This document shows, piece after piece, positions 15,976 to 58,922 of a DNA stretch of 64,000 nt. The notes under the pieces were generated by a model. The model saw nothing but the letters and a program-made list of their open reading frames with translations, made no database searches and was not told the origin of the DNA. The DNA is taken from NCBI GenBank assembly GCA_963705915.1, contig OY970126.1:10035-74034 (forward strand). Direction: 5' to 3'. Positions within the stretch are counted from its first letter, which is position 1; every line of letters begins with the position of its first letter. The stretch comes from an uncultured bacterium. GTDB taxonomy: Bacteria > Patescibacteriota > Minisyncoccia > UBA6257 > 2-01-FULL-56-20. The translations under genes were made by a program, and so were the position numbers.

Positions 15976-16005
15976 AGACTCAATGAGCCCATGATACCAA
16001 ATGAA

Positions 16006-27293: not shown

Positions 27294-28453
27294 TAGCTTT
27301 TTTCTTCTATCGCTCTTTTGAATATCGACTCAGTCTTGGCTACGAGGCCATCCCAGCCAAATTCTTTTTCCGCACGGATCGCGCCAGCCTTACCCATTGC
27401 TTCCGCTAATTGCCGGTCGTTATGAAGTTTTTCGATCGCTTCTGCGAGGGCAGGAATATTTTTTGGTTCGACCAGCAGGCCAGTTATGCCATCCTGTATA
27501 GCCTGCGGTATTCCTCCTGCATGTGTGCCGATCACCGGCGTGCCGCAAGCATTCGCTTCGATGAGCACCATCCCAAAGCCCTCTGCGCTTGTCGTTGTCG
27601 GGAGAATAAGTACGTCTGCCCCGGCGTAATATTTTGGCAAATCATCATCACTTACATAGCCAGGCAGCACGATATCGGCAAAGCCCTCTTTCTTCGCATA
27701 TTCTTTATAATATTCTATTGCATCTCCACGGCCTACAGCGATGAGTTGGAGGTCGTAACCTTTCTTTTTGAGAAGAGATGCAGTCGAGATGAGAATGTCG
27801 AGACCTTTGTGAGCGTGCGTTTTGTCCATCTGTGAGACAAATAATATCGTATAGCAGTTCCGATAATTATTTTTGAGCCAAGACGCATCGGCTTCTCTAT
27901 TAAAAAGGTGAAGATCGACACCTGGAGGTACGATATCGATTGGTTTTGGAAGATTCTTAAGATACGGAGAGACGGCTGCATAATATGCTGATGTTGCAAT
28001 CACAGCGTCCGCTTTGCGGAGTGTTTTGTTTGCGCCGAACATATAAGTCATCTTCGCCAACGTTCCCGCGATGAATGTATCTTTTACTAGATCATTATGA
28101 TACGTGACGATAAAAGGAATTGATCCCCGCACTCGTTCTGCAAAGTCGCCCATGAAAGGCCACGGAAGATGAGCGTTGATGACATCTGGCTTTTCCGCCC
28201 GCAAGATTTTTTTAAATTCCTTTCTCCAGGAAATACTCACTGGCGTATTGGAAAGCCGCGCCGTCATTGGGAGTCGATATGTCTTAAGGCCGTTTACATC
28301 TTCTAAGATCGCATGAGAAACGCGCTCGTGATTGAGAGTTATAACCACAATATCGTGCCCGAGTCTTTTTAAACCTAGGGCGATCTGATAGGCGTAATTT
28401 GTTTGTCCGCCCGGCTTTGGGTAGAAATAGGGAACTATAAAGAGTATTTTCAT
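27293..28453 (-). CDS. GT4 family glycosyltransferase
   Basis: N-terminal PYFYPKPGGQ and C-terminal EGFGMVLIEANACGTPVIGT motifs. Confidence 0.85.
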   Translation of the reverse strand: MKILFIVPYFYPKPGGQTNYAYQIALGLKRLGHDIVVITLNHERVSHAILEDVNGLKTYRLPMTARLSNTPVSISWRKEFKKILRAEKPDVINAHLPWPFMGDFAERVRGSIPFIVTYHNDLVKDTFIAGTLAKMTYMFGANKTLRKADAVIATSAYYAAVSPYLKNLPKPIDIVPPGVDLHLFNREADASWLKNNYRNCYTILFVSQMDKTHAHKGLDILISTASLLKKKGYDLQLIAVGRGDAIEYYKEYAKKEGFADIVLPGYVSDDDLPKYYAGADVLILPTTTSAEGFGMVLIEANACGTPVIGTHAGGIPQAIQDGITGLLVEPKNIPALAEAIEKLHNDRQLAEAMGKAGAIRAEKEFGWDGLVAKTESIFKRAIEEKS

Positions 28454-28459
28454 GAAGAT

Positions 28460-30547: not shown

Positions 30548-30566
30548 GGGTTAGTCGCTTATCTCG

Positions 30567-31346
30567 TTATAACACCACCTTTCTTGTCCGCTTCAGTTTC
30601 TCTTCTTGGGCTTTCTGTTTTTCCTTTTCGTTTTCCGGCCGCCATTTTAAATTGCGGAGGAACATGGCAAGAATGCGCGTGCCGTCATAGATTGGCCGGA
30701 GATTTGTTTGGCCGGAGCGAGGATGGTAGCTAATCGGCACGCAGGTAATTTCTTCACCGAGGCGCGCCATCTTTGTGACCATTTCCATTTCGATCGCAAA
30801 ACCCTCCGAGGTGATATGAGGTCGGAGCCTTTCGAGAGCGTCGCGTTTCCATGCAAAATAACCGGTCAGAACGTCCGTCATGTTGACGCGATAGAAATGG
30901 CGCACAAGATGGGAATACATCCAGTTGCCAAAGCGGTTAAACGCACTCATAGAGCCATCGAAAATTTTTCCACCGAGGCGCGAACCGATGACGACGCTCG
31001 CAAAGCCGGAGTCGAGCGGCTCGATGAGGCGCAAAATCTCATCTGGGCGATACGTGTTATCGCCGTCGAGCATCACCACGTAGTCGGTATCCTCATCAAT
31101 AGACCAAAAACCGCGGCGCATGGCGTTACCTTTGCCTTTGTTCGGTTCGTGGATGACTTTCGCGCCGGCAGCTTTGGCGATTTCGGCGGTTCGATCCTTT
31201 GAGTTATTGTCGATCACAACGACCTCGAGCTTGTAGCCGTGTTTACGGATCTTCTCCAACGGAAAATTATCGATGACGTTGCCAATTCCGCCTGCTTCGT
31301 TATAGCAGGGGATGAGGACTGTTATTTTTTTAGGTGAATTTTTCAT
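30567..31346 (-). CDS. GT2 polyprenol-phosphate glycosyltransferase (DPM1/GtrB-like)
   Basis: LIPCYNEAGGI, VVVIDNNSKDRT and MLDGDNTY (DxD) motifs. Soluble, 259 aa. Confidence 0.8.
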   Translation of the reverse strand: MKNSPKKITVLIPCYNEAGGIGNVIDNFPLEKIRKHGYKLEVVVIDNNSKDRTAEIAKAAGAKVIHEPNKGKGNAMRRGFWSIDEDTDYVVMLDGDNTYRPDEILRLIEPLDSGFASVVIGSRLGGKIFDGSMSAFNRFGNWMYSHLVRHFYRVNMTDVLTGYFAWKRDALERLRPHITSEGFAIEMEMVTKMARLGEEITCVPISYHPRSGQTNLRPIYDGTRILAMFLRNLKWRPENEKEKQKAQEEKLKRTRKVVL

Positions 31347-44982: not shown

Positions 44983-45059
44983 GGCTTAATTGTAGCACGG
45001 GGGAGCGCGGAAGATTTTTTGCGCATGCCGTCCGAGCGGACGGCACTCATTTTTTTACG

Positions 45060-45221
45060 AACGATGCATAAACCTCAAATAGAACGCTCCGAAGATCAAG
45101 ACGATGCCAATGTTCGCCATCAGCCGTTCCCAGACGTAATTTCTAAAGAATAGGATATCCGCGGCGACTATAACGAGGGCCATGAGCACAATGACGATGG
45201 TTAAAACGTAGGGTGAGTTCA
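45060..45221 (-). CDS. Small membrane protein (53 aa, 2 TM); not in the ORF track
   Basis: ORF MNSPYVLTIVIVLMALVIVAADILFFRNYVWERLMANIGIVLIFGAFYLRFMHRS read on the minus strand. Confidence 0.3.
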
Positions 45222-45265
45222 TTAAAGATACGTGTCGATATACTTGTGACGGCCTTTATATGATT

Positions 45266-46744
45266 TTACCACGCCTCGAGATCGAGTGTCTGGTCGATTT
45301 TGATCTGCTGTATAAAACTCGGCACGTGGCTCACGAGTACCATAGCACCTTCATATTTATCGAGCGCTTTTGCGATTACCGGGATATGGCGGAAGTTGAT
45401 GTGATTTGTCGGTTCGTCGAGAATGAGGAGCCCTGGTTTTTCGAGAGAGATCTTTGCAAAAGCTACTAGTCCTTTTTGGCCCTCCGAAAGCGCGCCGACT
45501 TTGGTTTGTAATAGCTCTGCATTGAGGAGGAATCCGGCGGCCGTTGAGCGGAGTTCTTGTTGCGTGCCGCCTTCCATGGCATCGCGGAGCGTGTCGTAAA
45601 CGGTTTTATCAAAATCGAGAGTCGAGAAGTCCTGCCGGTAATAGCTCACGCGAATGCCGGGCGCAATATGTTCGCCTTTGGCATGCCCCGTGGCAAGGGT
45701 TTCAAGGAGCGTGGTTTTTCCAATGCCGTTCGGGCCGGCGAGAAGAAGCCGTTCTTTTTTCTTGAGCACTACCTTCACCTTTTTTATCGTCGGTTTGTGG
45801 TTTTTCATGATAGAGACCGAATCAAGCTCGAGGATCCGGCCGCTTATATCCGGTTGGCAGGGGATAAAGAAATTTCTGATCGTCTTATCTTCCTCGCGGG
45901 TTTCCACGATGTCGCCTTCGAGTTCTTGAATTTTTTCGTTCATTTTGCGGGCAACGTCACGCATGTGCCCTCCTTTCTGTGCAAAGAAATTTGCCTGGTC
46001 TTTGCGGTGCTGGATATCTTTTTCGAGCCGCACGTTTTTCATGCGTTCGCGCTCTAATCGTTTTTTAATCTCTTCGACCACGTTAAAATAATCCCCGGTA
46101 TATTGTTCAACGGTCTTCGTGAAAATATCGAGATAGAGCACGCCTTGGGTGAACGAGTTCAGGAAATCTGCGTCGTGGGAGATCACGATGCAGGTTTTTG
46201 GATAGGCCTTTAAAAACTCCGTGAGGTGCGCAATGCCCTGCTTGTCGAGATTGTTTGTCGGTTCATCGAGGAGAAGGATATCGGGGTTTTGGATTATGGC
46301 TTGAGCGAGAAGCAGTCGCGCCTGTTGGCCGCCTGAGAACGAGCGCAGGGGCTTATCAAGCGGAGCCTTGAGGTGCACAACGTCCAGAATATTTTTTATG
46401 CGCGGTTCGATGTCGTATATTTTTTTGGAAAATGCTTTTGCAAAGAATTCCTGTACGGTGAGATCCATCTGGTCGCGAGGGATAACTTGGCGGCTGATGG
46501 CCATCGTGAGGCCGCGCTCGATGTGAATGGCGCCTTCTTCGGGTTTGAAGTCGCCCACGATCAATTTGAATATCGTCGTCTTGCCTGCGCCGTTCTGACC
46601 CATGAGCGTCACCTTCGAACCTTCGCGCAAAGAAAAATTCGCTTCGCGAAGAATAGGCGTGCGCCCATATTCAAAGGAAACCTTATCAAATCGCACAATA
46701 ACCTTATTGCTCAGCATGTCGCCTAGTATACCAAAAAAAGGCAT
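45266..46744 (-). CDS. ABC-F family ATPase (two ABC domains, no TMD)
   Basis: Two Walker A motifs (GQNGAGKTT, GPNGIGKTT) and two signature motifs (LSGGQQARLLLA, LSEGQKGLV). Confidence 0.85.
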   Translation of the reverse strand: MPFFGILGDMLSNKVIVRFDKVSFEYGRTPILREANFSLREGSKVTLMGQNGAGKTTIFKLIVGDFKPEEGAIHIERGLTMAISRQVIPRDQMDLTVQEFFAKAFSKKIYDIEPRIKNILDVVHLKAPLDKPLRSFSGGQQARLLLAQAIIQNPDILLLDEPTNNLDKQGIAHLTEFLKAYPKTCIVISHDADFLNSFTQGVLYLDIFTKTVEQYTGDYFNVVEEIKKRLERERMKNVRLEKDIQHRKDQANFFAQKGGHMRDVARKMNEKIQELEGDIVETREEDKTIRNFFIPCQPDISGRILELDSVSIMKNHKPTIKKVKVVLKKKERLLLAGPNGIGKTTLLETLATGHAKGEHIAPGIRVSYYRQDFSTLDFDKTVYDTLRDAMEGGTQQELRSTAAGFLLNAELLQTKVGALSEGQKGLVAFAKISLEKPGLLILDEPTNHINFRHIPVIAKALDKYEGAMVLVSHVPSFIQQIKIDQTLDLEAW

Positions 46745-48439: not shown

Positions 48440-48484
48440 GATTCGTCAAATCCTCAGCTCCGGCGGGTGGAGGATGTTCGGACC
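48440..48484 (+). repeat. Repeat B copy 1 (GCTCCGGCGGGTGGAGGATGTTCGGACC, 48457-48484) with an adjacent degenerate A-like segment GATTCGTCAAATCCTCA
   Basis: 28-bp direct repeat; see the other copies. Confidence 0.8.
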
Positions 48485-48554
48485 TGGATAGAGCAAGTGG
48501 GGGAGAGTTTTTATGTCCCAAGTTTAGTTAGCCCACCAGGCCGCTCACGATAGA
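48485..48554 (+). repeat. Conserved 70-nt element following repeat B; copy 1 (about 85% identical to 53039-53107)
   Basis: TGGATAGAGCAAGTGGGGGAGAGTTTTTATGTCCCAAGTTTAGTTAGCCCACCAGGCCGCTCACGATAG. Overlaps the SemiSWEET stop codon. Confidence 0.75.
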
Positions 48555-48817
48555 TTGGGAGATCTTTGCGAATATCTCTTTTTTAAAACTAATTGCACAA
48601 TCCCAATGACAAAGCCAGCTGCATTCGCAATCATGACAGGCGTTGCGCCAATAAGCCAACCATAGGTGGTCCAGATAGCGGAATTTATACAGTAGAGGAA
48701 TATCATCCCCAGCGATACGTCGTCCGCGTGTTTTGTCTTCGCCATCTTCACGATCTGCGGGATCATGATCGAGACTCCAACCACCGCGCCTATATAACCG
48801 AGGATATCTGAGAGCAT
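48545..48817 (-). CDS. SemiSWEET / PQ-loop sugar transporter (3 TM)
   Basis: 90 aa, 3 TM helices, PQ motif MIPQIVKMAKTK. Confidence 0.75.
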   Translation of the reverse strand: MLSDILGYIGAVVGVSIMIPQIVKMAKTKHADDVSLGMIFLYCINSAIWTTYGWLIGATPVMIANAAGFVIGIVQLVLKKRYSQRSPNLS

Positions 48818-48835
48818 AATTATATTTTACTATAA

Positions 48836-48880
48836 AAATCCCGATTCGGTATATTCGAATCGGGATTGTGAAAAAAAGGC
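48836..48880. other. Stable hairpin (ATCCCGATTCG / CGAATCGGGAT, 7-nt loop) in the SemiSWEET upstream region
   Basis: 11-bp perfect stem flanked by A-runs on the plus strand. Confidence 0.5.
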
Positions 48881-48927
48881 GAGGTTGATCAAGTCAATTA
48901 TTTATTAAAAAAAGAAAACTCGCACAA

Positions 48928-48960
48928 AAGATAAAATCGTGCGAGCTATAAATTAAAACC
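48928..48960 (-). terminator. Terminator hairpin CTCGCAC..GTGCGAG plus a T-run, for the 48946 gene
   Basis: Hairpin followed by a U-run on the minus strand. Confidence 0.55.
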
Positions 48961-49356
48961 ATATTCCCGAAATTGTTGCAATCTTTTTAAATATTCCAAC
49001 TTACGACATCCGTCGCAACAATCATTTGGATCGCGTCCTTTGTTGATGACGCTACTACGCCTTGTTACAAAATCTCCGCAGCTACAGCGAACAACCCAGA
49101 CCGATCCGGTGCTACCTCCTGCTTCCTTCTCGGAAGCAAACAGGCCCACCACCGTGAATCGTCCAAAAGTTCTGCCGGTCAGGTTCGGCATATTTCTCGG
49201 GACCTTTTTCAAGGGTGGTTGATTTTTCCAATGTCTTTGGGCGATCTTGACGTTGGGTTGTTCCGAAAAACCGGGTTTACTGACCCTCTGAGCGACACGG
49301 TTTACCGGATTGATCACTAAAAGCGTTGATTCGAAAATCCGATTCTTTTTTAGCAT
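48946..49356 (-). CDS. MGE-type Cys-rich small protein (LTGRTFGRFTV...W.VRCSCG...CDGC motif family seen in phage and island ORFs)
   Basis: 136 aa. GRFTVVG ... VWVVRCSCGDFVTRRSS ... CCDGCRK pattern. Confidence 0.4.
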   Translation of the reverse strand: MLKKNRIFESTLLVINPVNRVAQRVSKPGFSEQPNVKIAQRHWKNQPPLKKVPRNMPNLTGRTFGRFTVVGLFASEKEAGGSTGSVWVVRCSCGDFVTRRSSVINKGRDPNDCCDGCRKLEYLKRLQQFREYGFNL

Positions 49357-49378
49357 GCTGATCCTCGCTGTGCAGTAT

Positions 49379-49408
49379 TATAATTTGGAAATTATTAATG
49401 TCAAATAT
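49379..49408 (-). promoter_or_regulatory. Promoter: -35 TTGACA, 16-nt spacer, -10 TATAAT, upstream of the 48946 gene
   Basis: Hexamers read on the minus strand. Confidence 0.4.
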
Positions 49409-49441
49409 ATTTTTTCTATCGCTAATGTTAGCAGCGCTAAT

Positions 49442-49529
49442 GGTTCGAATCCTCGCGCGGGTAATAAAAATTGACCGCATAAAACCTATGAATCTTTAGC
49501 TGCTCCGGCGGGTGGAGGACGTTCGGACC
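49442..49529 (+). repeat. Composite repeat unit 2: A (GGTTCGAATCCTCGCGCGGGTA, 49442-49463), 38-nt spacer, B (49502-49529)
   Basis: The A segment looks like a tRNA T-arm plus acceptor 3' end. The unit ends are imperfect inverted repeats (GGTTCGAA...TTCGGACC). Confidence 0.8.
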
Positions 49530-49530
49530 G

Positions 49531-49857
49531 CTATTCGCGACCCATTTCATTCATAAGAGCCTCAGCCTGTTCAAAGAGATTCTCATCGTTCTCATTATGT
49601 GCGGCAACCCTTGCGGCCTCTAAGCTTGCCCATGCTTCTGTTTGAAATCCTGCCGCTCGATATAATTTTGCTTTTTTAAGGTCAAGCTCAATACCAGCCC
49701 GCGAAGTGTTTAATTCGGCCACCCTTGCTTCTTCAGCTGCGCACCATGCAAGGAGTAGCTCTTTTGACTGCGGGTCATCGATTCCGTTTTCTCGAAGTTT
49801 GGAAATCAACGCCAGCTCATTTTCGGAAAATTCAGATTCGGGAGACTTTTCTATCAT
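49531..49857 (-). CDS. Hypothetical acidic helical protein
   Basis: 108 aa. No motif recognised. Confidence 0.4.
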   Translation of the reverse strand: MIEKSPESEFSENELALISKLRENGIDDPQSKELLLAWCAAEEARVAELNTSRAGIELDLKKAKLYRAAGFQTEAWASLEAARVAAHNENDENLFEQAEALMNEMGRE

Positions 49858-49887
49858 GCCATGAATATATCACATTCTAGCAATATC

Positions 49888-49975
49888 GGTTCGAATCCTC
49901 GCGCGGGTAGCAAAAATTGCCCCCATAAAGCCTATGAATCTTTAGCAGCTCCGGCGGGTGGAGGATGTGAGAACC
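49888..49975 (+). repeat. Composite repeat unit 3: A (49888-49909), 38-nt spacer, B (49948-49975)
   Basis: About 90% identical to unit 2. Confidence 0.8.
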
Positions 49976-49982
49976 TTACAGC

Positions 49983-50016
49983 GAAAGACATTGACTCACA
50001 GTGATCTTATGCTATA
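49983..50016 (+). promoter_or_regulatory. Promoter: -35 TTGACT, 16-nt spacer, -10 TGCTATAAT (extended), then an AAGGAG SD for the 50045 gene
   Basis: Hexamers read on the plus strand. Confidence 0.45.
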
Positions 50017-50044
50017 ATAGTCTTCAGCGGTTAAGGAGATCTAC

Positions 50045-50266
50045 ATGGCATCTTTAGCGCAGCTCTCAGGAGTTGATTCTTTCGAGCGTGTAATCGCATT
50101 GCTTGAGAAAAAAGTTGGCACAACCGAAGCATGTGATCTTATCCTCTCGGATTCGCGGCTCATCGAGGCCGAAGAGGTTGACGGGATATTAGCCGACATC
50201 GATGAGAAGATGTATGGTGAGCCGATCGACTTTCGGGAACCGTGGGAAGATTTGATTTCCTACTAG
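50045..50266 (+). CDS. Hypothetical small acidic protein
   Basis: 73 aa with its own promoter and SD. Confidence 0.45.
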   Translation: MASLAQLSGVDSFERVIALLEKKVGTTEACDLILSDSRLIEAEEVDGILADIDEKMYGEPIDFREPWEDLISY

Positions 50267-50437
50267 TACTAAAGAGATCGACGTTTGCGCAAAGGGTCCG
50301 ATAGAGATATCGAACCCTTTTTATTTTGCTCGCTTGAGCAGACGGCTTGCGAACAGTGGATCGCGGCATTCCGGGCCTACGATTGGGAGAAGGCGATACG
50401 AGATCCGGCTGTAGCGTTAAAACAAATAAGGCAATTA

Positions 50438-51283
50438 CTAGCGCTTGTTTGATGCAGATGCTTTGCTGTAAAACTGGAACTGATTGCCGCCCCGCTTTTT
50501 GGCTTGATAAAGAGCCGTATCGGAAAGCCGGAGCAAGTCCGCCGGTTTCTTCCCATTGAGCGGATATAATGCAACCCCGATGCTGACCGAGGTTTTAATG
50601 ACTCTTTTTTCAATGAGGATTGGAATATCGAAAGCTCGCACGATCTTCTTTGCAATACGAATTGCATTCGCTTTACTTTCTAATTGTTTTGCCAGAACAA
50701 CAAATTCATCTCCTCCAAATCGAGCGGCGATGTCGGAACTTCGTACGGCATGACTCAGGCGATGTGCCACTTCTATCAGTACCAAGTCGCCAAACCGATG
50801 GCCCTCTTCGTCGTTAGTGCGTTTGAAGTTGTTAAAATCGAGATAAAGAATCGCGAGCAACTTTCCTCTTTTGGTCCTCTTGATAGATTCAAGAAAATCT
50901 TCCTCAAAAAAACTGCGGTTTGGCAGTCCCGTCAGAAAATCATGGGTTGAATTGTGGACGGCTAGCGTATGAAGATCGTTTTGCTGAGAAACGTCCCTCA
51001 TGATTTTTGAAAATCCCTGACTTGTTCCGTACTTGTTTCTCGTCGAGGTCAGCACGCCGCTGCTCCAAAATTTAGTTTTATTTTTTCGTACGTATTGCCG
51101 TTCATCCAAATACTTGCCTTCACTCACGGCATTTTTCATATCGGAACCGGGAGTGCCTCGTCGAATGTCTTCTTTTGTGAAAAGAATAGAAAAATCCTTG
51201 CCGATAATTTCTGCTCGCTTATAACCGAAGAGTTTTGCCCCCCCCTGGTCCCAGCTGGTAATCTTGCCTTTCTTGTCGAGCAT
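50438..51283 (-). CDS. PAS-GGDEF diguanylate cyclase; the PAS domain appears N-terminally truncated
   Basis: GGDEF site RFGGDEF. A PAS core (ITSWDQGGAKLFGYKRAEIIG) begins about 8 aa from the start. Confidence 0.8.
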   Translation of the reverse strand: MLDKKGKITSWDQGGAKLFGYKRAEIIGKDFSILFTKEDIRRGTPGSDMKNAVSEGKYLDERQYVRKNKTKFWSSGVLTSTRNKYGTSQGFSKIMRDVSQQNDLHTLAVHNSTHDFLTGLPNRSFFEEDFLESIKRTKRGKLLAILYLDFNNFKRTNDEEGHRFGDLVLIEVAHRLSHAVRSSDIAARFGGDEFVVLAKQLESKANAIRIAKKIVRAFDIPILIEKRVIKTSVSIGVALYPLNGKKPADLLRLSDTALYQAKKRGGNQFQFYSKASASNKR

Positions 51284-51465
51284 AAAAATCGCGTAATCTC
51301 GTATGCTTTCAACGAGGGTGCGATAGTTCTGTTCGGTATTGGTCTTTTCTTTGCGACGTTCGATGCTTATGTCGTAAGTATGGACTTATGGCTAGGAATA
51401 GCAATTATTTCTCTGTTTTGCAGGGGGTTTGTTATATTACGACGATTTCTTTATGAGGTTTTTTA

Positions 51466-51492
51466 TTCCGGCGCGTGGAGGATGGTAGAACC
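51466..51492 (+). repeat. Repeat B copy 4 (TTCCGGCGCGTGGAGGATGGTAGAACC)
   Basis: Ends 6 nt before the stop codon of the ICMT gene. Confidence 0.75.
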
Positions 51493-51497
51493 TGTCC

Positions 51498-52064
51498 TTA
51501 CCAGATAAACGGCAAGAGCCGCTTGGTATGCGCTTGATAGGGTGGATACTGGTCAGGGAAAAGATCGAGCATCGCACGCTCCTCTTTGTGGATACGCCGC
51601 AAACAGAAGATGATGCTTATAATAAACAGCGCAACGGCCACGATACTTCCGGTCAATGCGCCGCCAAAGAGCGCGAGTATCGCGCCCGCATAGATCGGAT
51701 GGCGGACATACGCGTATGCGCCGTTCGTTACGAGCTTATGATCTTCTTTCGGATGTGTTCCCCAGTCGCGTCCTAAGTCGTATCGCCCCCAGATCGCGAA
51801 CGCGACACCGATAACGGTTAACAATGCGCCAACCCAACTGACCGCGAGACCGAAATTGAAGAACGCATATTCAAGGACGAACGCATCGCCCTGTAAATTT
51901 CGAGTAAGAGCATACATCAATAGTGCTAACAAAAAGAGTAGTAGGAGTGGAGGAAGGCTCTTTGAGTGGCTCGAAGCGTCGCGCTTGGCGGTAAAAGCAC
52001 CTACCACCCATACTGTTATAAGCACCAACCAACTTGCGATGATGACATAACCATAGTCGTACAT
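51498..52064 (-). CDS. Isoprenylcysteine carboxyl methyltransferase (ICMT) / phospholipid methyltransferase family membrane protein
   Basis: YAYVRHPIYAG motif. 5 TM helices. The track ORF extends to a TTG at 52106 and would translate the A5 repeat, so the start is uncertain. Confidence 0.7.
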   Translation of the reverse strand: MYDYGYVIIASWLVLITVWVVGAFTAKRDASSHSKSLPPLLLLFLLALLMYALTRNLQGDAFVLEYAFFNFGLAVSWVGALLTVIGVAFAIWGRYDLGRDWGTHPKEDHKLVTNGAYAYVRHPIYAGAILALFGGALTGSIVAVALFIISIIFCLRRIHKEERAMLDLFPDQYPPYQAHTKRLLPFIW

Positions 52065-52080
52065 GTGATCATCATACCGC

Positions 52081-52136
52081 AGTTCGAATCCTCGCGCGGG
52101 TAGCAAAAATTAGGGCGGGTGGAGGATGCGAGAACC
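52081..52136 (+). repeat. Composite repeat unit 5: A (52081-52102), 10-nt spacer, B (52113-52136, 5'-truncated)
   Basis: The spacer between A and B is deleted relative to units 2 and 3. Confidence 0.75.
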
Positions 52137-52207
52137 TGTTATAGGGGAAGATTGATATAACTCGGTGGATATGATAATTTCTTGGATAGATCTGGAGGAG
52201 GTCTCCT

Positions 52208-52471
52208 GTGCCGAAAATTGATGAAAATAAGATCTTAAATACCCTCAGCCATACCGTATGGAAAACTCCGTTCGATATCCGGGTAGAAACCGGGCGATCT
52301 ATATCGCTTAGAGAAATCTATCGTCATCTCGAGGCGTTTGAGGTTCGGCAACTTGTCGAACGTCGAGATAAGCAACTGACAGCGACTCAGCTCGCTCTAC
52401 GGGGTGGCAAGCCCGCGATTGAATTTCGATTACTGCCAGCTGGTGTCCGTCGAAAGGGCGAGGTTTCGTAG
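52208..52471 (+). CDS. Hypothetical protein (possibly winged-helix)
   Basis: GTG start preceded by GGAGGAGG. 87 aa. Confidence 0.4.
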   Translation: MPKIDENKILNTLSHTVWKTPFDIRVETGRSISLREIYRHLEAFEVRQLVERRDKQLTATQLALRGGKPAIEFRLLPAGVRRKGEVS

Positions 52472-52572
52472 AAAATCAAAGGGGTATCGATAGGGATGCC
52501 ATGTCCTGTCAGAGCCTAGTCTCGTCGAAACAATCTCCGGGTCAATCCAAAGTGATTGGCCCTTTTATTTTT

Positions 52573-52600
52573 GCTCCGGCGGGTGGAGGATGTTAGAACC
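52573..52600 (+). repeat. Repeat B copy 6 (GCTCCGGCGGGTGGAGGATGTTAGAACC; matches the consensus)
   Basis: Flanked by convergent terminator hairpins at about 52528-52572 and 52613-52640. Confidence 0.85.
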
Positions 52601-52653
52601 CGGATGAAATAAAAACTGCGCGTCCAAAGCCGCGCAGTTCTCGAAGTAATTCT

Positions 52654-52935
52654 TTACTGTTTAATCCCTAGGGCACCCTTGATCTTTGCAGTGACTTCGT
52701 CTGGTTGAGGCAACGCTTTGGAAATGAGTCCTGGGAGTGCCTGCCCGACCAAATCCAGTAAAACCCTTGTGTCGATTTCATACCAATCCTTGCTGGCGGA
52801 CGAAGCAAGAAATTCGACCTCCTGCGTTTCAAGGATGCGTCGAGCAAATGCCTCTTGTTTCTTGTAGACCCTAAGTTTGCAGTAGCTCAACGCAAAAGCA
52901 AAATAGATTTCAACAGTCGGAAAGTTGCTTTGCAT
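52654..52935 (-). CDS. Hypothetical protein
   Basis: Start taken at MQSNFPT, which has a GGAGG SD. The track ORF extends to 52977. Confidence 0.35.
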   Translation of the reverse strand: MQSNFPTVEIYFAFALSYCKLRVYKKQEAFARRILETQEVEFLASSASKDWYEIDTRVLLDLVGQALPGLISKALPQPDEVTAKIKGALGIKQ

Positions 52936-53010
52936 CGACGCCTCCAGATAATCGCATAACTGAGGACAGAATAACACTGCCCCTTTAAAATTTCAATGAC
53001 GAAACGATCT

Positions 53011-53038
53011 GCTCCGAATCGTGAATAAAGTTAGAACC
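53011..53038 (+). repeat. Repeat B copy 7 (GCTCCGAATCGTGAATAAAGTTAGAACC; ends conserved, middle diverged)
   Basis: Same length and orientation as the consensus. Followed by the conserved 70-nt element. Confidence 0.6.
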
Positions 53039-53107
53039 GAGATAGAGCAGGCGGGGGAGAGTTTTTATGTTCCAAGTTTAGATACCCCACCACTCCGTTC
53101 ACGGTAG
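53039..53107 (+). repeat. Conserved 70-nt element, copy 2
   Basis: GAGATAGAGCAGGCGGGGGAGAGTTTTTATGTTCCAAGTTTAGATACCCCACCACTCCGTTCACGGTAG. Confidence 0.75.
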
Positions 53108-53117
53108 TTTCGAAAGA

Positions 53118-53142
53118 AAAAGCCACCGGTTAAGGTGGCTAA
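53118..53142 (-). terminator. Terminator hairpin GCCACC..GGTGGC plus a T-run after the alphaCTD gene
   Basis: Hairpin followed by TTTTTCTTTCG on the minus strand. Confidence 0.6.
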
Positions 53143-53164
53143 CGAGTCGAGGAGTAGGCGATGG

Positions 53165-53557
53165 TTACCACTTGCGTAACGAAAGATTTCTTTCGGTCAG
53201 AACATCTTTGATCTCTCTCAGTGACTTTCTACCAAGAGTCCTGATTCTCAAGAGGTCTAACTCGGTTTTTCCGATAAGCTCGGTGATCGTGTTGATGTTC
53301 CCATTCTTCAAGCAATTGTAGGAACGATTAGAAATATCCAGCTCTTCGATCTTACCAAGGGCTGAGTCGATCGCTGATTCCCTGGTGAAGGTTAGCTTCA
53401 TTCCGAAGATTGGCTCAAATGGATTTTCGGAAACCACAAATCCTTCATTTCGGAGTGCGATCATCTTGTAGATTGCATCCACCAAGCTTTCGAGCTTCTT
53501 GTCTGGTGCAACCTCTACAACTGTAGTAGTTGTCACAGGAATCTTGTTATCGGTCAT
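53165..53557 (-). CDS. Stand-alone RNA polymerase alpha-subunit C-terminal domain (alphaCTD) protein with an unrelated 70-aa N-terminal region
   Basis: [56 protein letters not shown] aligns to the RpoA alphaCTD (R265-like and G296/K298/S299-like residues present). Strong promoter TTGACG-17-TATAAT plus AAAGGAGAAG SD. Confidence 0.75.
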
Positions 53558-53622
53558 CTCGCTTCTCCTTTTCGATTAGTGCCGTACAGATTATATCATT
53601 ATTTAATTATCTCGTCAAATTT

Positions 53623-53651
53623 GCTCAGGTAGGGCGGGGAATGTTAGGACC
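53623..53651 (+). repeat. Repeat B copy 8 (degenerate: GCTCAGGTAGGGCGGGGAATGTTAGGACC), adjacent to an A-like CTCGTCAAAT
   Basis: The reverse complement of the adjacent A-like segment supplies the TTGACG -35 of the alphaCTD promoter. Confidence 0.55.
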
Positions 53652-53710
53652 TTGCTTTCTTAATTTGGCGCGAGTATAAAGAATTTAGATTTATCGGATG
53701 GGAGACTGAT

Positions 53711-53953
53711 GTGAAACGTATAAATGGAGAAAAGTGGTTGACTCCTACGGAAGCAGGAAAGATATTGGGAGTGAGCAAGAGAACCATCATTCGATGGTGT
53801 GCGGATGGCTCGAATCAGGATCGTAAACCCGAAGACCCTCCGAACCTCAATCCTAGGCGAGGACCAAATCGGCGATTATATTTTCGAGAAAGCCACATCA
53901 AATCTCTCGCAAACCATTACTTTGGGATCGGTCAAAATGAGGGCGGCGCATGA
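53711..53953 (+). CDS. Excisionase/AlpA-like HTH DNA-binding protein
   Basis: 80 aa. LTPTEAGKILGVSKRTIIRWCADG HTH segment. GTG start with a GGGAG SD. Confidence 0.55.
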   Translation: MKRINGEKWLTPTEAGKILGVSKRTIIRWCADGSNQDRKPEDPPNLNPRRGPNRRLYFRESHIKSLANHYFGIGQNEGGA

Positions 53954-54074
53954 TTAAAAGCGACGCCCTCTTTTTTTGCTCCCCACCTCGGACTTGAATC
54001 CCGCCAGTGCAAGCCCCACAAGCATCCCAGAGGATCGTCCGGAGAAGGGGAATGACGCCTCTCGGTCAGGGATC

Positions 54075-54123
54075 AAATGAGACAAATGAGACACTTTTAG
54101 CGTGTCTCGGGACGTGTCTCATT
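54075..54123. promoter_or_regulatory. Operator-like array: two direct AATGAGACA repeats and two inverted GTGTCTC repeats (palindrome AATGAGACAC-N19-GTGTCTCATT)
   Basis: Read from the sequence. Lies immediately upstream of a strong promoter. Confidence 0.55.
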
Positions 54124-54163
54124 TGCTCTTTATATAAGGAAAACAGGCCTTCCGGAGGAGCAT

Positions 54164-54192
54164 TGACAATATACTATAAATCGTTGTATAAT
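54164..54192 (+). promoter_or_regulatory. Sigma70-like promoter: -35 TTGACA, 17-nt spacer, extended -10 TGTATAAT
   Basis: Consensus hexamers about 60 nt upstream of the 54261 gene. A leader hairpin GTTGCGT..ACGCAAC lies in between. Confidence 0.6.
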
Positions 54193-54260
54193 ATACCCAG
54201 ATCATTAAATCCAAGGCGGTTGCGTGCCTACTGAAACGCAACACAAGGAGGGTGACTCCA

Positions 54261-54752
54261 ATGGCAAATATCAGAGTGATGTGGTTCCGTTATGCTGGCG
54301 TTGATAGCATCACGCCCGAGTTGCTGGCGAAGTATTCAGGAACGTACACCATCGCGCGCGATATGGGCGCATGCAAACACGTTGGTCGCGACACCGAGTA
54401 TTACACCTTGGAATTCGCGCCGACGCCGCACGTTGACCTGCTGCTTGTTACTCGACAAATCATCGAGGACATTCGCTATCAAGCGCATCCGATGTCGGGA
54501 TTCGGTCACGTGGAACCGTTCCGTAAGTTCGTGCCTTCCAAAGAGGAAGAGACGGGAATTGATCAGATGAACGAAACGTTGACCGCGCTCGACAACACGC
54601 TCGACAGCCTGAAAGAATCCGAAGGCTGGCGCAAACGTGCGAAAGAGTCAGTAAAGATCTCGGCGCAAACTCTGAAAGAGACCCGTTCGATTTTCGGGAG
54701 CAAAGCGATTGCGAGCGTTCGTCGCAGCCTCGAAGCGATTGCCGCAAATTAG
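54261..54752 (+). CDS. Hypothetical protein
   Basis: Start taken at MANIRV, 9 nt after the AAGGAGG SD. The track ORF starts at GTG 54252. Confidence 0.5.
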   Translation: MANIRVMWFRYAGVDSITPELLAKYSGTYTIARDMGACKHVGRDTEYYTLEFAPTPHVDLLLVTRQIIEDIRYQAHPMSGFGHVEPFRKFVPSKEEETGIDQMNETLTALDNTLDSLKESEGWRKRAKESVKISAQTLKETRSIFGSKAIASVRRSLEAIAAN

Positions 54753-54872
54753 ATTCATACCCTTCATACCGAGGGATCTCGTACAGATCCCTCTCCCACT
54801 AAAGTATTTTCAACGAGAATTCTTTAGCGGGAGAAATCCCGATAGTTCTTCAAAACTTCAGAGGAGGATGTT

Positions 54873-55298
54873 ATGAGATATGTTTTTGCGGTACTGGTGC
54901 TGATCGCCTGCGTCTACACAATCGTGATGTTGCCAAAAGATATGCGTCGCACAGAAGAAAACAAGGCAACCGAGGTTCGCGTGGCAGCCGAAAAGGCCGC
55001 TGCTCAGGAGCAGTTCGAGAAGGACATCATCTCTGCAGAGAAACTAACCCGCCCATCCTGTTCCGAAACGCTCGTCGTGGTCGTTTGGCCTCCGGCGAAT
55101 CTCCCAGAAGCAAAACCACGGGTTGTCATCGCAGGCTACAACGTCGAGGACTTCAACTCGATGAGCGTCAATTTCCACAAAAATCATGACGGCGGATTCG
55201 AATTGAGAGCCAACGGCGGCGAGGTGAGTAACAAACTGCCTGTCGATGGAAAATTCTGCCGGACAGAGGCGGAGTACCAACTCAAACATCCCAGGTAG
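54873..55298 (+). CDS. Membrane-anchored hypothetical protein
   Basis: N-terminal TM helix. AGAGGAGG SD. Confidence 0.5.
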   Translation: MRYVFAVLVLIACVYTIVMLPKDMRRTEENKATEVRVAAEKAAAQEQFEKDIISAEKLTRPSCSETLVVVVWPPANLPEAKPRVVIAGYNVEDFNSMSVNFHKNHDGGFELRANGGEVSNKLPVDGKFCRTEAEYQLKHPR

Positions 55299-55325
55299 AA
55301 CATAATTCTCTAGTAGCCAACAACG

Positions 55326-55367
55326 GCGACCCAATTCATATTTTGTATGGGCCGCCGTTTTCTTTTA
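55326..55367 (+). terminator. Rho-independent terminator (CGGCGACCCA..TGGGCCGCCG plus TTTTCTTTT)
   Basis: Hairpin and U-run directly before B copy 9. Confidence 0.65.
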
Positions 55368-55395
55368 CTCCGGCGAGTGGAGGATGTTAGAACCT
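55368..55395 (+). repeat. Repeat B copy 9 (ACTCCGGCGAGTGGAGGATGTTAGAACC)
   Basis: Last copy. Lies between convergent genes. Confidence 0.8.
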
Positions 55396-55482
55396 ATTAT
55401 GTGAAAATAGAAAAATGTCCAGAAATAGTGAGGGCCACGCGATCTTTGGCGTGGCCCCTGTGGTTAATTGGCTATGAAACAA

Positions 55483-56322
55483 CTACTCGGAGGAGGGGCG
55501 CATCACCCAGATTTCTTGTGTCTGGATTTCTTCCGCAACCTCTGAACTAAAAACTGTGCAGTGGATACCCGGCGTGAAATCGATCTGCCGATGCCTTTCG
55601 ACACGAAAGCCAACGTTCTCAAAAAAATGCTGTGCATCTTGGAAATCTTCGAAAAGGTTGTCGTTCATGTTGCGTCCAGTCGTCGTCGCGATTTGCTTCT
55701 GCGCTGGACTACTCGCCATCCTTTTCTCATGATGCTCTTTGATAAGAATGTCTGGAGTGATCCAAACCCCCGAAAAAAGGTTGAGTACCCCAGCAATGCT
55801 TCCGGCCAACTCCCGTTTTTCGTCATTGTTGAGGTACGGCATAAGACCTTCGTGAATGATGGCAACGGGCGCTGTTTTGAAACGAGCAGTAGCCGATTGT
55901 AGTTCGCCCTGCTCCAAGGCGTTAGCGGAAGCGAAGTGGTAGTTCGGCCGCTTCTTTGTTCCGAGCAGTTCCGAAACGATCTCCTGTTTTTCTGCGAGCA
56001 TTCCCGGTAGGTCGGTTTCGACAAATGTGATCTCTGGATTTTCAGTCAAGATCAACCCACGAGGAGAAAGTCCCGAAGCAATTTCAAGCACTTGATTAAC
56101 CCCGACGTGAGGCAGGATGCCGCTCAATGATTTGAAGCGTAGTTCTGCGAGAGGTGCCCTTTTGAGCGCCGCTTCCATGTTGCCGTTGAAGTACGTTTTT
56201 GCGATCGCTTCGGCGTCGCACATGGTGGCGATTTCTCGAGAGTAGGGGATGTCCGACATTGCCCGCATGAAAGCCACGAGCTTTGCGGTTGGACTGATTT
56301 GATGAAAATCGTGTTCGTTCAT
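55483..56322 (-). CDS. Class I SAM-dependent methyltransferase (leucine carboxyl / TcmP-like family)
   Basis: Start taken at MNEHDF, which has a GGAGAA SD. ISPTAKLVAFMRA N-terminal family signature. Confidence 0.65.
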   Translation of the reverse strand: MNEHDFHQISPTAKLVAFMRAMSDIPYSREIATMCDAEAIAKTYFNGNMEAALKRAPLAELRFKSLSGILPHVGVNQVLEIASGLSPRGLILTENPEITFVETDLPGMLAEKQEIVSELLGTKKRPNYHFASANALEQGELQSATARFKTAPVAIIHEGLMPYLNNDEKRELAGSIAGVLNLFSGVWITPDILIKEHHEKRMASSPAQKQIATTTGRNMNDNLFEDFQDAQHFFENVGFRVERHRQIDFTPGIHCTVFSSEVAEEIQTQEIWVMRPSSE

Positions 56323-56369
56323 TTGTTCTCCAGTTAGTGGGATGAGTTGGATGAATGATAACATCCAAA

Positions 56370-56398
56370 ATTGACAAATCGGTTCTGCGGATGTTATA
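56370..56398 (+). promoter_or_regulatory. Promoter: -35 TTGACA, 17-nt spacer, -10 TTATAA(C), for the 56457 gene
   Basis: Hexamers in the divergent intergenic region. Confidence 0.45.
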
Positions 56399-56456
56399 AC
56401 ATAGCCAGCAGTTAGCGTCAATTCAATCGTGGCAGGAAGCCACAAGGAGATGCGTT

Positions 56457-57038
56457 ATGAAGTTCAATATCGTTCTGATGTGCACCGGCCTTGGCCTCCT
56501 CGCCATGGCCTTGTATCGGATGGGCGCGATTAAGATCGACCGAAAGTTCATGGTGGATCTCTTGCCGCTCATCATCGTGACTGCCGTGCTTGCTGGATGC
56601 GCCTATCGAATCGGCGGATCAAAACTTGCTAACGATGGAGCGATCCTTTCAGCAAAGATGATCGCCGCCTATGCACCGCTTCTCACCGTGATGTTTCTTG
56701 CGATGGGTGAGGCGACAGCGATCATCAATCTTTACCGGCCAGCTCTGCTCGCGTACCTCGCAGGCAAGCAAGGTGTCTTCGGCGCACTGGCCGCAGCACA
56801 CCTCATTCCGGGAAGTTTGACGAGTATGCCGATCGTGCGTGAGCTGTGGGATGCGGGAGCCAATCCCGTGCCGTTGCTCACGTTCGTGACGACTTCAACA
56901 CTTGTCGGATGGCAGATCGCCATGGTTCGTCAGCCGATTCTCGGTTGGCGGCTCACATTCATCACGTATTGCCTTGGAGAACTTGCGGCGCTCTCTATCA
57001 CAGGCGTCGGTTGGGTTCTCATGACGGTTCGAGCTTGA
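56457..57038 (+). CDS. Integral membrane protein (6 TM), unknown family
   Basis: AAGGAG SD. Hydrophobic. Confidence 0.5.
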   Translation: MKFNIVLMCTGLGLLAMALYRMGAIKIDRKFMVDLLPLIIVTAVLAGCAYRIGGSKLANDGAILSAKMIAAYAPLLTVMFLAMGEATAIINLYRPALLAYLAGKQGVFGALAAAHLIPGSLTSMPIVRELWDAGANPVPLLTFVTTSTLVGWQIAMVRQPILGWRLTFITYCLGELAALSITGVGWVLMTVRA

Positions 57039-57054
57039 AATCAAAGGAGGCCAT

Positions 57055-57408
57055 ATGCCACCACCACTCATTGCTCACACCCGCGAGGAATTTATCACGA
57101 ATCTGATCTGCATTTTCGTGATTTTGCCCTTCGCGATCTTCTGTATGTTTCATCCACCCTCGACATGGGGCCCGCACATGGACCTGACGGCACTTTCCGG
57201 ACCGCAGGTGCTCGTGAGCGTTGAAAATGGAACAGCAAAATTCAAGGGCACCGACGGAGATGTAATCGTCCTTGAAATCGATACGCGCGGGCTCGAAGTT
57301 GGTGCGACGTATGCGGTGGAAGACCACCCCTTTCGGGGTACGTGGGGATTGCTCCACAACTACTCCTTAAAAAAGTTGCAAAATCCCATGAGCTTCACTG
57401 GTCCTTAG
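57055..57408 (+). CDS. Hypothetical protein with one TM helix
   Basis: AAAGGAGG SD. 117 aa. Confidence 0.45.
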   Translation: MPPPLIAHTREEFITNLICIFVILPFAIFCMFHPPSTWGPHMDLTALSGPQVLVSVENGTAKFKGTDGDVIVLEIDTRGLEVGATYAVEDHPFRGTWGLLHNYSLKKLQNPMSFTGP

Positions 57409-57478
57409 TCGAAAACTAGGACTTGCGTTGCTCGGCCGACCATGAATACGTGGCGGCCTTTTTTGCTAATTGGTTCGT

Positions 57479-58087
57479 TTAGATTTTTAGCCCCAGCTTT
57501 TTGAGGTCGGATTTAAGCTGTTCGTTGTTCTTGAAAAGAATCGGCGCGTAACCGATCTCCGCTGCTTTTTCCAAACTTTTGGCAGAATCGTCCACGAAGA
57601 CGACTTCTTTAGGGCGAACGTCCAGCTTCTTGAATGCAACCTCGAATGCCTCGCGGTGCGGTTTCTGATGGCCGATTTCGCCGGAGACCACAATCTCGTC
57701 CACGAGCTTTGCTATACCTTCGTTTTCCAATCGAGTCCGCAGTTCTGAGGTCGCATTGCTCAAAATGGCGACTTTCAATCCCTGGTTGCGCAGCACCGAA
57801 AACAGAGACAGGAGATCGGTGTTGATCCTGTTTCCCGCGCTATAGGTTTGTATAAATGTTCTGATGCGATCTTTTGTTGCCGCACTATCATCAAATACCC
57901 GCACGACTTCAATGATCATATCTTCCCATCTCACGTTGGTCACATTCGAAAGATGATTGTGTTCGTAATAAGCCTGTTGAAATTTATCGAACGGAACGTC
58001 GAGCATCCGGGCGATCTGCCTCAATATGTTCTCGCCGTCGTTTAACTGGATGACGCCGCCAAAATCAAAAATTACAGCTTTGATCAT
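57479..58087 (-). CDS. HAD-superfamily hydrolase (subfamily IA)
   Basis: Motif I VIFDFGGV, motif II ILSNAT and motif IV FVDDS. Confidence 0.8.
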   Translation of the reverse strand: MIKAVIFDFGGVIQLNDGENILRQIARMLDVPFDKFQQAYYEHNHLSNVTNVRWEDMIIEVVRVFDDSAATKDRIRTFIQTYSAGNRINTDLLSLFSVLRNQGLKVAILSNATSELRTRLENEGIAKLVDEIVVSGEIGHQKPHREAFEVAFKKLDVRPKEVVFVDDSAKSLEKAAEIGYAPILFKNNEQLKSDLKKLGLKI

Positions 58088-58815
58088 ATTGCAAAATCTA
58101 ATGTTACCGCCAAGTGGTCCGAGACCTCATCCGGCAGTACGGTGAAATCGTTGACCTTGATGCCCGGCGTTACGAGGACGTAGTCGGCATATCGGATCGG
58201 ACTTGTCTTATAGAGCGAGCTGCGGGTCGAGGTGATGTCGTGTTCTTTAATAAGGTTACGCATGCCATGTTCGAGAATTCTGATACTTTCGCCATCGGGA
58301 AGGAGGTTGAAATCGCCGCAGATAATTTTTTCGCCGGGGAAGGAGTCTAAAATCTTCCGAATGTGATGCGATTGCTCAATCCGTTCCGGCGTATCTTTCT
58401 TATGGGTATCCTTGATCCACATACCGTGGAAATTGCAGATGGCGAGCGGAGCATTGCCCGCTTGGATCGTCATAAACTGGGCTTTGGCGATCGCATTTTT
58501 CCGCCAATCGTGTCCGGCATCGGAAACGATGTTGAACATCTCGTCATACGAGAGGATGGGGATGCTCTCTTTAATAAAGATAGCGTTGCCGAAATTGATA
58601 TCCTTGCCGATGAAGCCGCTATAGTCGTAGCCCTTTGATTTTGGACTGTGGAAGGCGCGGTAGGACGTGAGAATTTCTGAGATGTCTTCATGCAAGCTCG
58701 CCCGCGCCCCATCGGCGATTTCCATATCAGCATTCGTGCTGAACACTTCTTGGAAGCAGAAGATGTCAATCTCACCATCGAGCCGCTCAATGAGCTTGAG
58801 GAGGGGACCATGCAC
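58084..58815 (-). CDS. Endonuclease/exonuclease/phosphatase (EEP) family protein
   Basis: DIFCFQEV, ICGDFN and SDHLAV motifs. Homology continues about 30 nt upstream of the first ATG with no canonical start codon. Confidence 0.65.
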   Translation of the reverse strand: MHGPLLKLIERLDGEIDIFCFQEVFSTNADMEIADGARASLHEDISEILTSYRAFHSPKSKGYDYSGFIGKDINFGNAIFIKESIPILSYDEMFNIVSDAGHDWRKNAIAKAQFMTIQAGNAPLAICNFHGMWIKDTHKKDTPERIEQSHHIRKILDSFPGEKIICGDFNLLPDGESIRILEHGMRNLIKEHDITSTRSSLYKTSPIRYADYVLVTPGIKVNDFTVLPDEVSDHLAVTLDFAI

Positions 58816-58922
58816 TTTGCCGCCCCACGTGTTGAGCGTCAGGAGTTTTATACGGCAATTATATCAGATTTCTTTGCTGAAATGGTTTGAAAAAGTTATT
58901 ATTGCCCTATATACCTATATAA

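Follow-up and report, generated by a model that had tools for sequence, protein, structure and literature searches.

Tandem accretion of cis-mobilizable elements (CIMEs) places units one behind the other, in direct orientation, at the 3' end of a tRNA gene or another conserved gene; the units are flanked by attachment (att) sites, lack integrase and transfer genes, and can be acted upon by a recombinase whose gene lies elsewhere (PMC5704250). We analyzed a 64-kb stretch of DNA from an uncultured bacterium (the window), in which an island at 48440-55395 is divided into short gene cassettes by same-orientation copies of a 28-bp repeat that resembles the 3' end of tRNA-Asn(GTT). The island is best explained in kind as a variant of tRNA-linked tandem accretion with integron-like behaviour in bacteria of the candidate phyla radiation (CPR).

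CIME arrays, such as the ICESt1/ICESt3-related islands and the composite islands at streptococcal tRNA-Lys, are similar to the present locus in that their att-flanked units carry neither integrase nor transfer genes. The units found here are, however, far smaller (~0.45-1.7 kb with 1-3 genes each in the window), more numerous (9-11 per array) and free of decayed mobility genes, and their site is a conserved 28-bp tRNA mimic instead of the end of the host's own gene. Integrons and clusters of attC sites lacking integrases (CALINs) share with the locus the many small cassettes that each end in one co-oriented conserved site, the fixed chromosomal neighbour site, the recombinase outside the cassettes and the high turnover of accessory genes. 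In contrast to integrons, there are no attC hairpin arms and no IntI here, the genes have their own promoters and lie in both orientations, and entry is at a tRNA 3' end and not at attI.

Islands in tRNA genes, including tandem arrays, have a regenerated tRNA and displaced, co-oriented 3'-fragment repeats (PMC4383910, PMC9580842). Such tRNA and tmRNA islands (Islander/TIGER type) agree with the arrays reported here in the co-oriented 3'-fragment repeats, the synteny break at the tRNA 3' end and, in four related genomes, the intact tRNA at one end. They differ in that no integrase was found here, that the repeat deviates from the resident tRNA end by a 5-nt insertion and in its acceptor bases, and that in the window lineage the array is more than 8 kb away from the tRNA, which is expected outside the window. 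In Prochlorococcus, tycheposon islands lie beside tRNA genes, and the partial tRNA copies within them record a series of integrations by which earlier cargo was displaced inward (10.1101/2020.12.28.424599). The likeness is that of a streamlined genome with a tRNA-adjacent island strewn with partial tRNA copies, whereas tycheposons are several kb long and carry tyrosine recombinases and replication modules, neither of which was found here. Recombinase-less modules bounded by short conserved sites, with the enzymes encoded elsewhere, are also known from the staphylococcal cassette chromosome (SCC) at rlmH in staphylococci and from the pdif modules (site length 28 bp) of Acinetobacter plasmids. 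The window locus resembles both in this respect, but the large serine recombinases and protein-gene end of SCC, and the 11-6-11 Xer architecture and alternating orientation of pdif, do not apply to it.

Cassette size, site number, a tRNA mimic that is not the host's own and the lack of a recombinase nearby distinguish the locus from all these systems, and a description of such arrays in Patescibacteria was not found in the literature searched. The genomes of CPR/Patescibacteria are smaller than 1 Mb, and the routes by which they acquire and exchange accessory genes are poorly understood. A conserved 28-bp tag on promoter-bearing mini-cassettes that occurs in several lineages and is tied to tRNA-Asn would define a dedicated gene-shuffling locus, could help to find the accessory gene pool in metagenomes and would provide a substrate for identifying the recombinase. 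The case also shows how an ordinary tRNA att site can give rise to an organisation like that of integrons.

A 28-bp repeat resembling the 3' end of tRNA-Asn

The consensus 28-mer GCTCCGGCGGGTGGAGGATGTTAGAACC was matched to both strands of the window with up to three mismatches and compared to shuffled sequence. Matches occur at 48457, 49502, 49948, 52573 and 55367, all on the plus strand, where the shuffles lead to an expectation of 0; repeat finding and an nhmmer profile search add copies at 51465 and 52109 as well as decayed ones at 53011 and 53623. This amounts to seven clear and two decayed copies, all on the plus strand, all intergenic and all within 48457-55394, and neither the pattern nor the profile search revealed further copies elsewhere in the window on either strand. 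An earlier note on this DNA, made from the window alone, had claimed nine same-orientation copies, which is confirmed by the three kinds of search with start coordinates that were right within 1-4 nt. Its argument that this speaks against a random scattering of miniature inverted-repeat transposable elements (MITEs) is correct, as the copies occupy a single locus and a single strand. The decayed copy 7 was judged to be real because the 28-mer together with 75 nt next to it (53008-53110) is 78% identical to 48454-48556.

In its minus-strand reading, GGTTCTAACATCCTCCACCCGCCGGAGC, the 28-mer is a pseudo 3' end of tRNA-Asn(GTT), in which a T-loop-like part GGTTCTAACATCCTCCAC is followed by the acceptor 3' strand and the discriminator, CGCCGGAGC. 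The 3' end of tRNA-Asn and ~35 nt of its downstream flank can be aligned with the repeat and its flank (alignment A1), which shows that the site is tRNA-like. Over 30 copies the information content is 1.5-2 bits within the 28-mer and ~0.2 bits just outside of it on both sides, and this sharp two-sided conservation suggests recognition by a protein. The acceptor sequence of the repeats is CGCCGGA, whereas the tRNA-Asn of the window genome, partly seen in locus L045, has the 5' strand TCCGCGG, implying CCGCGGA. As the acceptor bases differ from those of the host tRNA-Asn, the sites did not originate as fragments of the resident tRNA but travel with the cassettes. The bases at repeat positions 10-11 are genome-specific, with GG in the window, CG in locus L064 of the closest relative and GC in the Minisyncoccia arrays. 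Next to some copies an inverted pseudo-tRNA 3' arm is present (Table 1), which we read as a captured downstream flank and not as an attC arm.

An internal hairpin CTCC..GGAG in the repeat was considered and rejected, since the variants disrupt the pairing without compensation.

The motif TTA(C/G)CCCACC-N6-TCACnrTAG, contained in the extension next to copy 1, occurs also beside repeats in L003, L035, L027 and L022. Written as TTACCCCACC-N6-TCACnrTAG, a conserved motif besides the 28-mer is located 40-75 nt from some repeats, in the window at 48524-48556 and 53079-53110 and in the relatives at L003 3102-3133, L035 427-468 and L027 4425-4455, 7010-7040 and 7250-7285. A G-rich segment before the TTACCCCACC motif could pair with CCCCACC. 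In some of its copies ACTCACTATA is present, the core sequence of promoters of the T7 type.

A diverged repeat variant, ..C(T/G)GGGGACGTAG.A.., surrounds a copy of the ICMT cassette in L041 (7678-7701, 9831-9854, 11165-11190). It was missed by the profile built from the window copies, so that such arrays are probably more widespread than exact-pattern scans suggest. In the window, the segment 50316-50355 after the terminator of the 73-aa gene consists of a T-run and GCTCGCTTGAGCAGACGGCTTGCGAACA, shares 14 of the 28 repeat bases and has a context like that of copies 4, 6 and 9; it may be an eleventh site in a state of strong decay. Upstream of the conserved gene for a 193-aa membrane protein, the promoter (56372-56405, TTGACA..CGGTTCTGCGGATGTTATAAC) contains GGATGTTATAAC, which has 11 of 13 bases in common with the 3' half of the repeat, and this resemblance may be a coincidence or a decayed site.

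Arrays in related genomes and probable cassette exchange

Relatives were found by repeat scans of species-representative genomes (L003, L022, L027) and metagenomes (L032-L036). The same repeat, on one strand per locus, is present in an uncultured bacterium (L003, six copies) and in the Minisyncoccia/Paceibacterota metagenome-assembled genomes L027 and L022. The number of copies per array is 11 for L003/L064, 11 for L027 and L032 together, six for L058, two each for L036, L035 and L034, and one for L022. For the ~45 cassettes in at least six arrays the median spacing is ~0.65 kb.

In these relatives the arrays are linked to tRNA-Asn and co-oriented with it. The array begins right after an intact tRNA-Asn gene, in the orientation of the gene, in L022, L027, L036 and L058; in L022 and L027 the reverse complement of the repeat is co-oriented with tRNA-Asn(GTT), whose acceptor 3' strand and discriminator, CGCCGGAGC, make up its end. 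In L058, which is part of a 496-kb Minisyncoccia contig, the tRNA-Asn is followed by six co-oriented copies, and the core synteny with L027 (72-76% identical) ends exactly at the tRNA 3' end. One L027 repeat has the flank type that is found after the tRNA-Asn of L058, which indicates that cassettes were transferred together with captured flanks; foreign sequence from downstream of a tRNA has been carried into the arrays.

The window belongs to an 827-kb contig of a Paceibacteria-like organism, and its closest available relative is one 913-kb contig holding L003, L043 and L064. The L064 array of this relative is syntenic with the window and has 11 copies on one strand. From the upstream tRNA-Asn, whose orientation the copies share, the arrays are separated by 19-28 kb with an ABC transporter, an element with a large serine recombinase and framework genes. 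Window and L064 share the small m55 gene and three blocks of 89.4% to 91.7% identity (Table 1), and a serine hydrolase gene near 62.2 kb matches the adjoining L043. Between the syntenic blocks no cassette is common to both. The homology to L064 starts exactly where a T-run gives way to GCTCCCCACCTCGG... (window 53978); as this is a pseudo-tRNA 3' end, it was counted as a tenth site, a variant that the earlier note did not have. The homology is lost five bases into copy 9 (..CTCC), bases that form the GGAG end of the tRNA-like reading, and this places a recombination breakpoint at the GGAG end. In these alignments, cassette turnover between the relatives is complete, with breakpoints at the edge of the site. 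The content is variable between related genomes, both in the absence of shared cassettes between window and L064 and in the break of core synteny at the tRNA 3' end between L058 and L027. The hypervariability runs on past 55395, where the earlier note ended the island, to ~58.9 kb. Because of the synteny with the relative, the tRNA-Asn of the window genome is expected to the right of the window and in minus-strand orientation.

A further indication comes from the ICMT cassette, which has 85% nucleotide identity to a copy in L041, as against only 76% for ABC-F, a core gene. The L041 copy stands among other neighbours, and the repeat variants around it have diverged. That the cassette is closer to L041 than a core gene supports cassette exchange. 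In L036 the HAD gene forms a cassette between two repeats, whereas in the window it lies outside the island as first delimited.

The loci L037 and L043, which belong to the same genome as L064, contain no repeat copies. The ABC-F gene was rejected as an anchor for the array, since it sits elsewhere in the relatives, where L037 and L038 hold no array.

A gene for a 55-aa membrane protein is situated at or inside the distal part of the arrays in four genomes (window 45055-45279; L027 7041-7246; L041 11285-11449; L064 416-590), and in L027 it is followed by an apparent remnant of the 3' end of the ABC-F gene. In the window, but not in L064, ABC-F, a 289-aa membrane protein and RibD_C are found between the 55-aa gene and copy 1, which points to a local rearrangement.

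The tRNA-Asn of L036 carries a ~220-nt intron and was missed by ARAGORN. Introns of at least ~220 nt in the anticodon loop of tRNA-Asn(GTT) are seen at L036 6947-7235, at L043 ~10745-11050 and, in the window genome, at L045 ~1165-1377; they keep ARAGORN from calling the gene and have a weak match to the Rfam group I intron (21 bits, E = 0.003, below the gathering score), and the gene is intron-less in L022, L027, L046 and L058. In L037 (5597-6241) an exact 15-nt copy of the 3' end of tRNA-Gln(CTG), TCCAGGCCCGGCAGC, is located 560 bp downstream of the gene, and both bracket a mini-insert without integrase, so that very small inserts with flanking att sites, placed at the 3' ends of tRNA genes, seem to be a general trait of the lineage.

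Proposed mechanism and rival explanations

We lean, at slightly better than even confidence, towards a serial site-specific accretion and exchange of small integrase-less, often promoter-bearing cassettes at att-type 28-mers that mimic tRNA-Asn(GTT). The 28-mer would act as an att-type recombination site imitating the 3' end of this tRNA, and the island would be a tandem array of cassettes with 1-3 genes each, without integrase and often with a promoter of their own. In conservative site-specific recombination, the 28-mer of a cassette would be paired with the 3' end of tRNA-Asn or with another 28-mer, with the crossover at or next to the GGAG(C) end, and successive insertions would move older cassettes away from the tRNA. 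The single cassette would be the mobile unit, and the recombinase, most likely a tyrosine-family enzyme, would be encoded elsewhere. The complete turnover at ~90% identity in arrays that are far from the tRNA implies that the competence for recombination resides in the 28-mers themselves. Of the two options of the earlier note, repeated integration at a duplicated att core is well supported by the tRNA mimic, the arrays beginning at tRNA-Asn and co-oriented with it, the complete turnover and the breakpoints at the site edge. More tentatively, and with somewhat less than even confidence, we suggest that the arrays could constitute an undescribed integron-like platform for gene capture in Paceibacteria/Minisyncoccia, in which self-expressed cassettes with 1-3 genes, each closing with the pseudo-tRNA-Asn site, are inserted or exchanged by a recombinase encoded elsewhere, the tRNA-Asn 3' end and every resident 28-mer being possible targets. 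If this is true, the platform would give reduced genomes a dedicated hypervariable accessory locus.

Several observations weigh against the accretion model. In alignment A1 the repeat carries a 5-nt insertion relative to the T-arm of the real tRNA, and the halves of the 28-mer, GCTCCGGCGGG and ATGTTAGAACC, do not form an inverted repeat, as would be usual in a simple core site of a tyrosine recombinase. The tRNA and Rfam scans of the window yielded no tRNA gene. Six contigs of the L058 population (L058-L063), from different samples, carry identical arrays without any presence/absence polymorphism between strains, so that turnover is not rapid at strain level; the L046 lineage has small genes after tRNA-Asn but no repeats. 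Viral-contig repeat scans and BLAST of the repeat units gave no matching site on viral, phage or plasmid sequences, and circular or excised forms of cassettes were not observed. A tyrosine recombinase was found neither in the window (motif regular expression, and phmmer with XerD and lambda Int sequences as queries, a check that is weak for very divergent enzymes) nor in the Pfam listings of the ten related loci scanned, ~190 kb altogether. The absence of a tyrosine integrase, previously stated for the island, hence applies to the whole window, and the suggested look for IntI or another recombinase nearby gave no tyrosine recombinase there. The only recombinase encountered was one large serine recombinase outside the arrays, in L043, and such enzymes are not known to yield 28-bp direct repeats.

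The large serine recombinase (Resolvase, Recombinase, Zn_ribbon_recom) belongs to a prophage-like element at L043 12732-20500, together with HTH, ParB-methyltransferase and LexA-like genes, which sits between tRNA-Asn and the cassette island. The L046-L055 population was considered for testing polymorphism and set aside as uninformative, all contigs being identical and without repeats. The Rfam scan of the window gave no match.

The small units might instead be immobile fossils, left when integrase-bearing elements (phages, or elements similar to integrative and conjugative or integrative and mobilizable elements) inserted serially at tRNA-Asn and decayed to att-flanked remnants by the CIME route. 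Such decay is the standard origin of tandem arrays (PMC5704250) and has a counterpart in the tycheposon islands (10.1101/2020.12.28.424599); it would fit the stability of the arrays within the L058-L063 population, the decay of several sites and the large serine recombinase element between tRNA-Asn and array in L043. We nevertheless consider it unlikely, as the ~45 cassettes in at least six arrays contain intact genes with promoters and terminators and no remnant of an integrase or of another mobility gene, as the 28-mer is unlike the host tRNA yet conserved with sharp edges across lineages, and as turnover is complete between ~90% identical genomes with arrays 19-28 kb from the tRNA. The number of small, intact and self-expressed cassettes and their complete turnover are features that go beyond an ordinary decay of large elements; if the arrays were such fossils after all, they would be an ordinary example of tandem accretion. 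Still less probable is that the 28-mers serve as portable homology, with RecA-dependent recombination between them swapping cassettes after DNA uptake and a site-specific step that is only historical. CPR bacteria are thought to rely on DNA uptake, and the genome-specific signatures at repeat positions 10-11 are compatible with gene conversion or recombination among copies. Yet a 28-bp stretch is close to the minimum that homologous recombination requires, the breakpoints lie at the site edge (GGAG end) with the tRNA/flank junctions at the same position, and the two-sided conservation suggests recognition by a protein.

That the repeat has no part in recombination, being a MITE, a repetitive extragenic palindrome (REP) or a site for protein binding or regulation (an operator or a polar fork barrier, for example), is very improbable. 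Its intergenic position, within the promoter regions of several minus-strand genes, would suit such a role; however, its placement with respect to the starts and ends of genes varies, and it is restricted to a single locus and a single strand, lacks terminal inverted repeats and target duplications, and coincides with synteny breakpoints and with tRNA-Asn. The chance of a chromosomal integron cassette array or of a CALIN with homogeneous attC sites, the other option of the earlier note, seems to us minimal, even though the cassettes are integron-sized, the sites are co-oriented and three units possess an inverted left arm. The repeat end GTTAGAA is close to GTTRRRY, the R' consensus of attC. 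Against this, at least 26 of 32 copies have no inverted partner within the 220 nt searched and only ~6 have an inverted arm, the folding of the three composite units is no better than that of shuffled controls (z -1.5 to +0.5), and the left arm is T-loop sequence of a pseudo-tRNA 3' end and not RYYYAAC. The genes lie in both orientations with promoters of their own, no IntI-like integrase was found, and the site is demonstrably derived from tRNA-Asn, so that this option is left unsupported and the reading as attC-like hairpins was rejected.

Two other assignments of the repeat were also discarded. A Xer/dif site of the 11-6-11 type does not agree with halves that are not inverted repeats, the absence of palindromic arms and the single orientation of all copies. 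The 3' half of the repeat resembles the XerD-arm/Ter-core motif ATGTT..AAC, which would suit a regulatory site; the Ter-like reading was dropped, as a palindromic partner arm is missing.

Cassette genes and neighbouring blocks

The island is flanked by genes for a RibD_C protein and an LCM-type methyltransferase (Pfam), and its GC content of 0.45-0.48 is below that of the surroundings. Pfam agrees with the gene content given in the earlier note (SemiSWEET, PAS-GGDEF, ICMT, alphaCTD and an excisionase-like HTH protein, here HTH_17), and exact-protein look-ups of the window genes returned no record. Genes do occur in both orientations, seven on the minus and five on the plus strand. The claim that most of them have their own promoter and terminator stands for part of the cassettes only: four carry a promoter that agrees with the sigma-70 consensus at a score of 11-12 of 12, and ~5 have terminators. 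In the alpha-CTD cassette the promoter (TTGACG, 17 nt, TATAAT) is on the minus strand at 53618-53590, and its -35 box abuts the copy 8 site, which is one flank class. All positions are collected in Table 1.

Table 1. Repeat sites, cassette genes and adjoining blocks of the window.
Feature	Position	Strand	Remarks
Repeat copy 1	48457..48484	-	GCTCCGGCGGGTGGAGGATGTTCGGACC on the plus strand; minus reading resembles a tRNA-Asn 3' end (T-loop-like part, acceptor 3' strand, discriminator)
Repeat copy 2	49502..49529	-	composite unit with inverted pseudo-tRNA arm 49442-49466
Repeat copy 3	49948..49975	-	composite unit with inverted arm 49888-49912
Repeat copy 4	51465..51492	-	4 mismatches; directly after T-run
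Repeat copy 5	52109..52136	-	5' part decayed; fused to inverted arm 52083-52106
Repeat copy 6	52573..52600	-	perfect consensus; terminator 52539-52572 immediately before
Repeat copy 7	53011..53038	-	decayed
Repeat copy 8	53623..53651	-	decayed, one indel; abuts -35 box of alpha-CTD cassette promoter
Tenth site	53978..54005	-	variant pseudo-tRNA 3' end GCTCCCCACCTCGGACTTGAATCCCGCC after T-run; L064 homology starts here
Repeat copy 9	55367..55394	-	L064 homology stops after first 5 nt (..CTCC)
Inverted pseudo-tRNA 3' arm GGTTCGAATCCTCGCGCGGGTAATA	49442..49466	+	more at 49888-49912, 52083-52106
Extension next to copy 1	48485..48556		also beside copy 7 at 53039-53110; contains TTA(C/G)CCCACC-N6-TCACnrTAG
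SemiSWEET	48545-48817	-	Pfam
Cys-rich protein, 136 aa	48946-49356	-	
108-aa gene	49531-49857	-	
73-aa gene	50045-50266	+	
PAS-GGDEF	50438-51283	-	Pfam
ICMT	51498-52106	-	Pfam
87-aa gene	52208-52471	+	
107-aa gene	52654-52977	-	
RNA polymerase alpha-CTD	53165-53557	-	Pfam
HTH_17	53711-53953	+	Pfam
Variable cassettes overall	48545..53953		no member found in the syntenic L064 array
Conserved block, 166-aa and 141-aa genes	53972..55364	+	between tenth site and copy 9; 91.7% identical to L064 12151-13545
Variable slot, LCM-type methyltransferase	55395..56366	-	two unrelated genes in its place in L064
Framework shared with L064	56367..58870		m193 gene 56367-57066 (90.6%), HAD and EEP 57478-58870 (89.4%); variable slot between

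Outside of the island, the window contains a low-GC stretch at 11000-31000 (0.40-0.48) with genes of the sugar-nucleotide/cell-envelope type, among them a NAD-dependent epimerase-like and a nucleotidyltransferase-like open reading frame as well as large secreted proteins. This stretch may be a second variable region.

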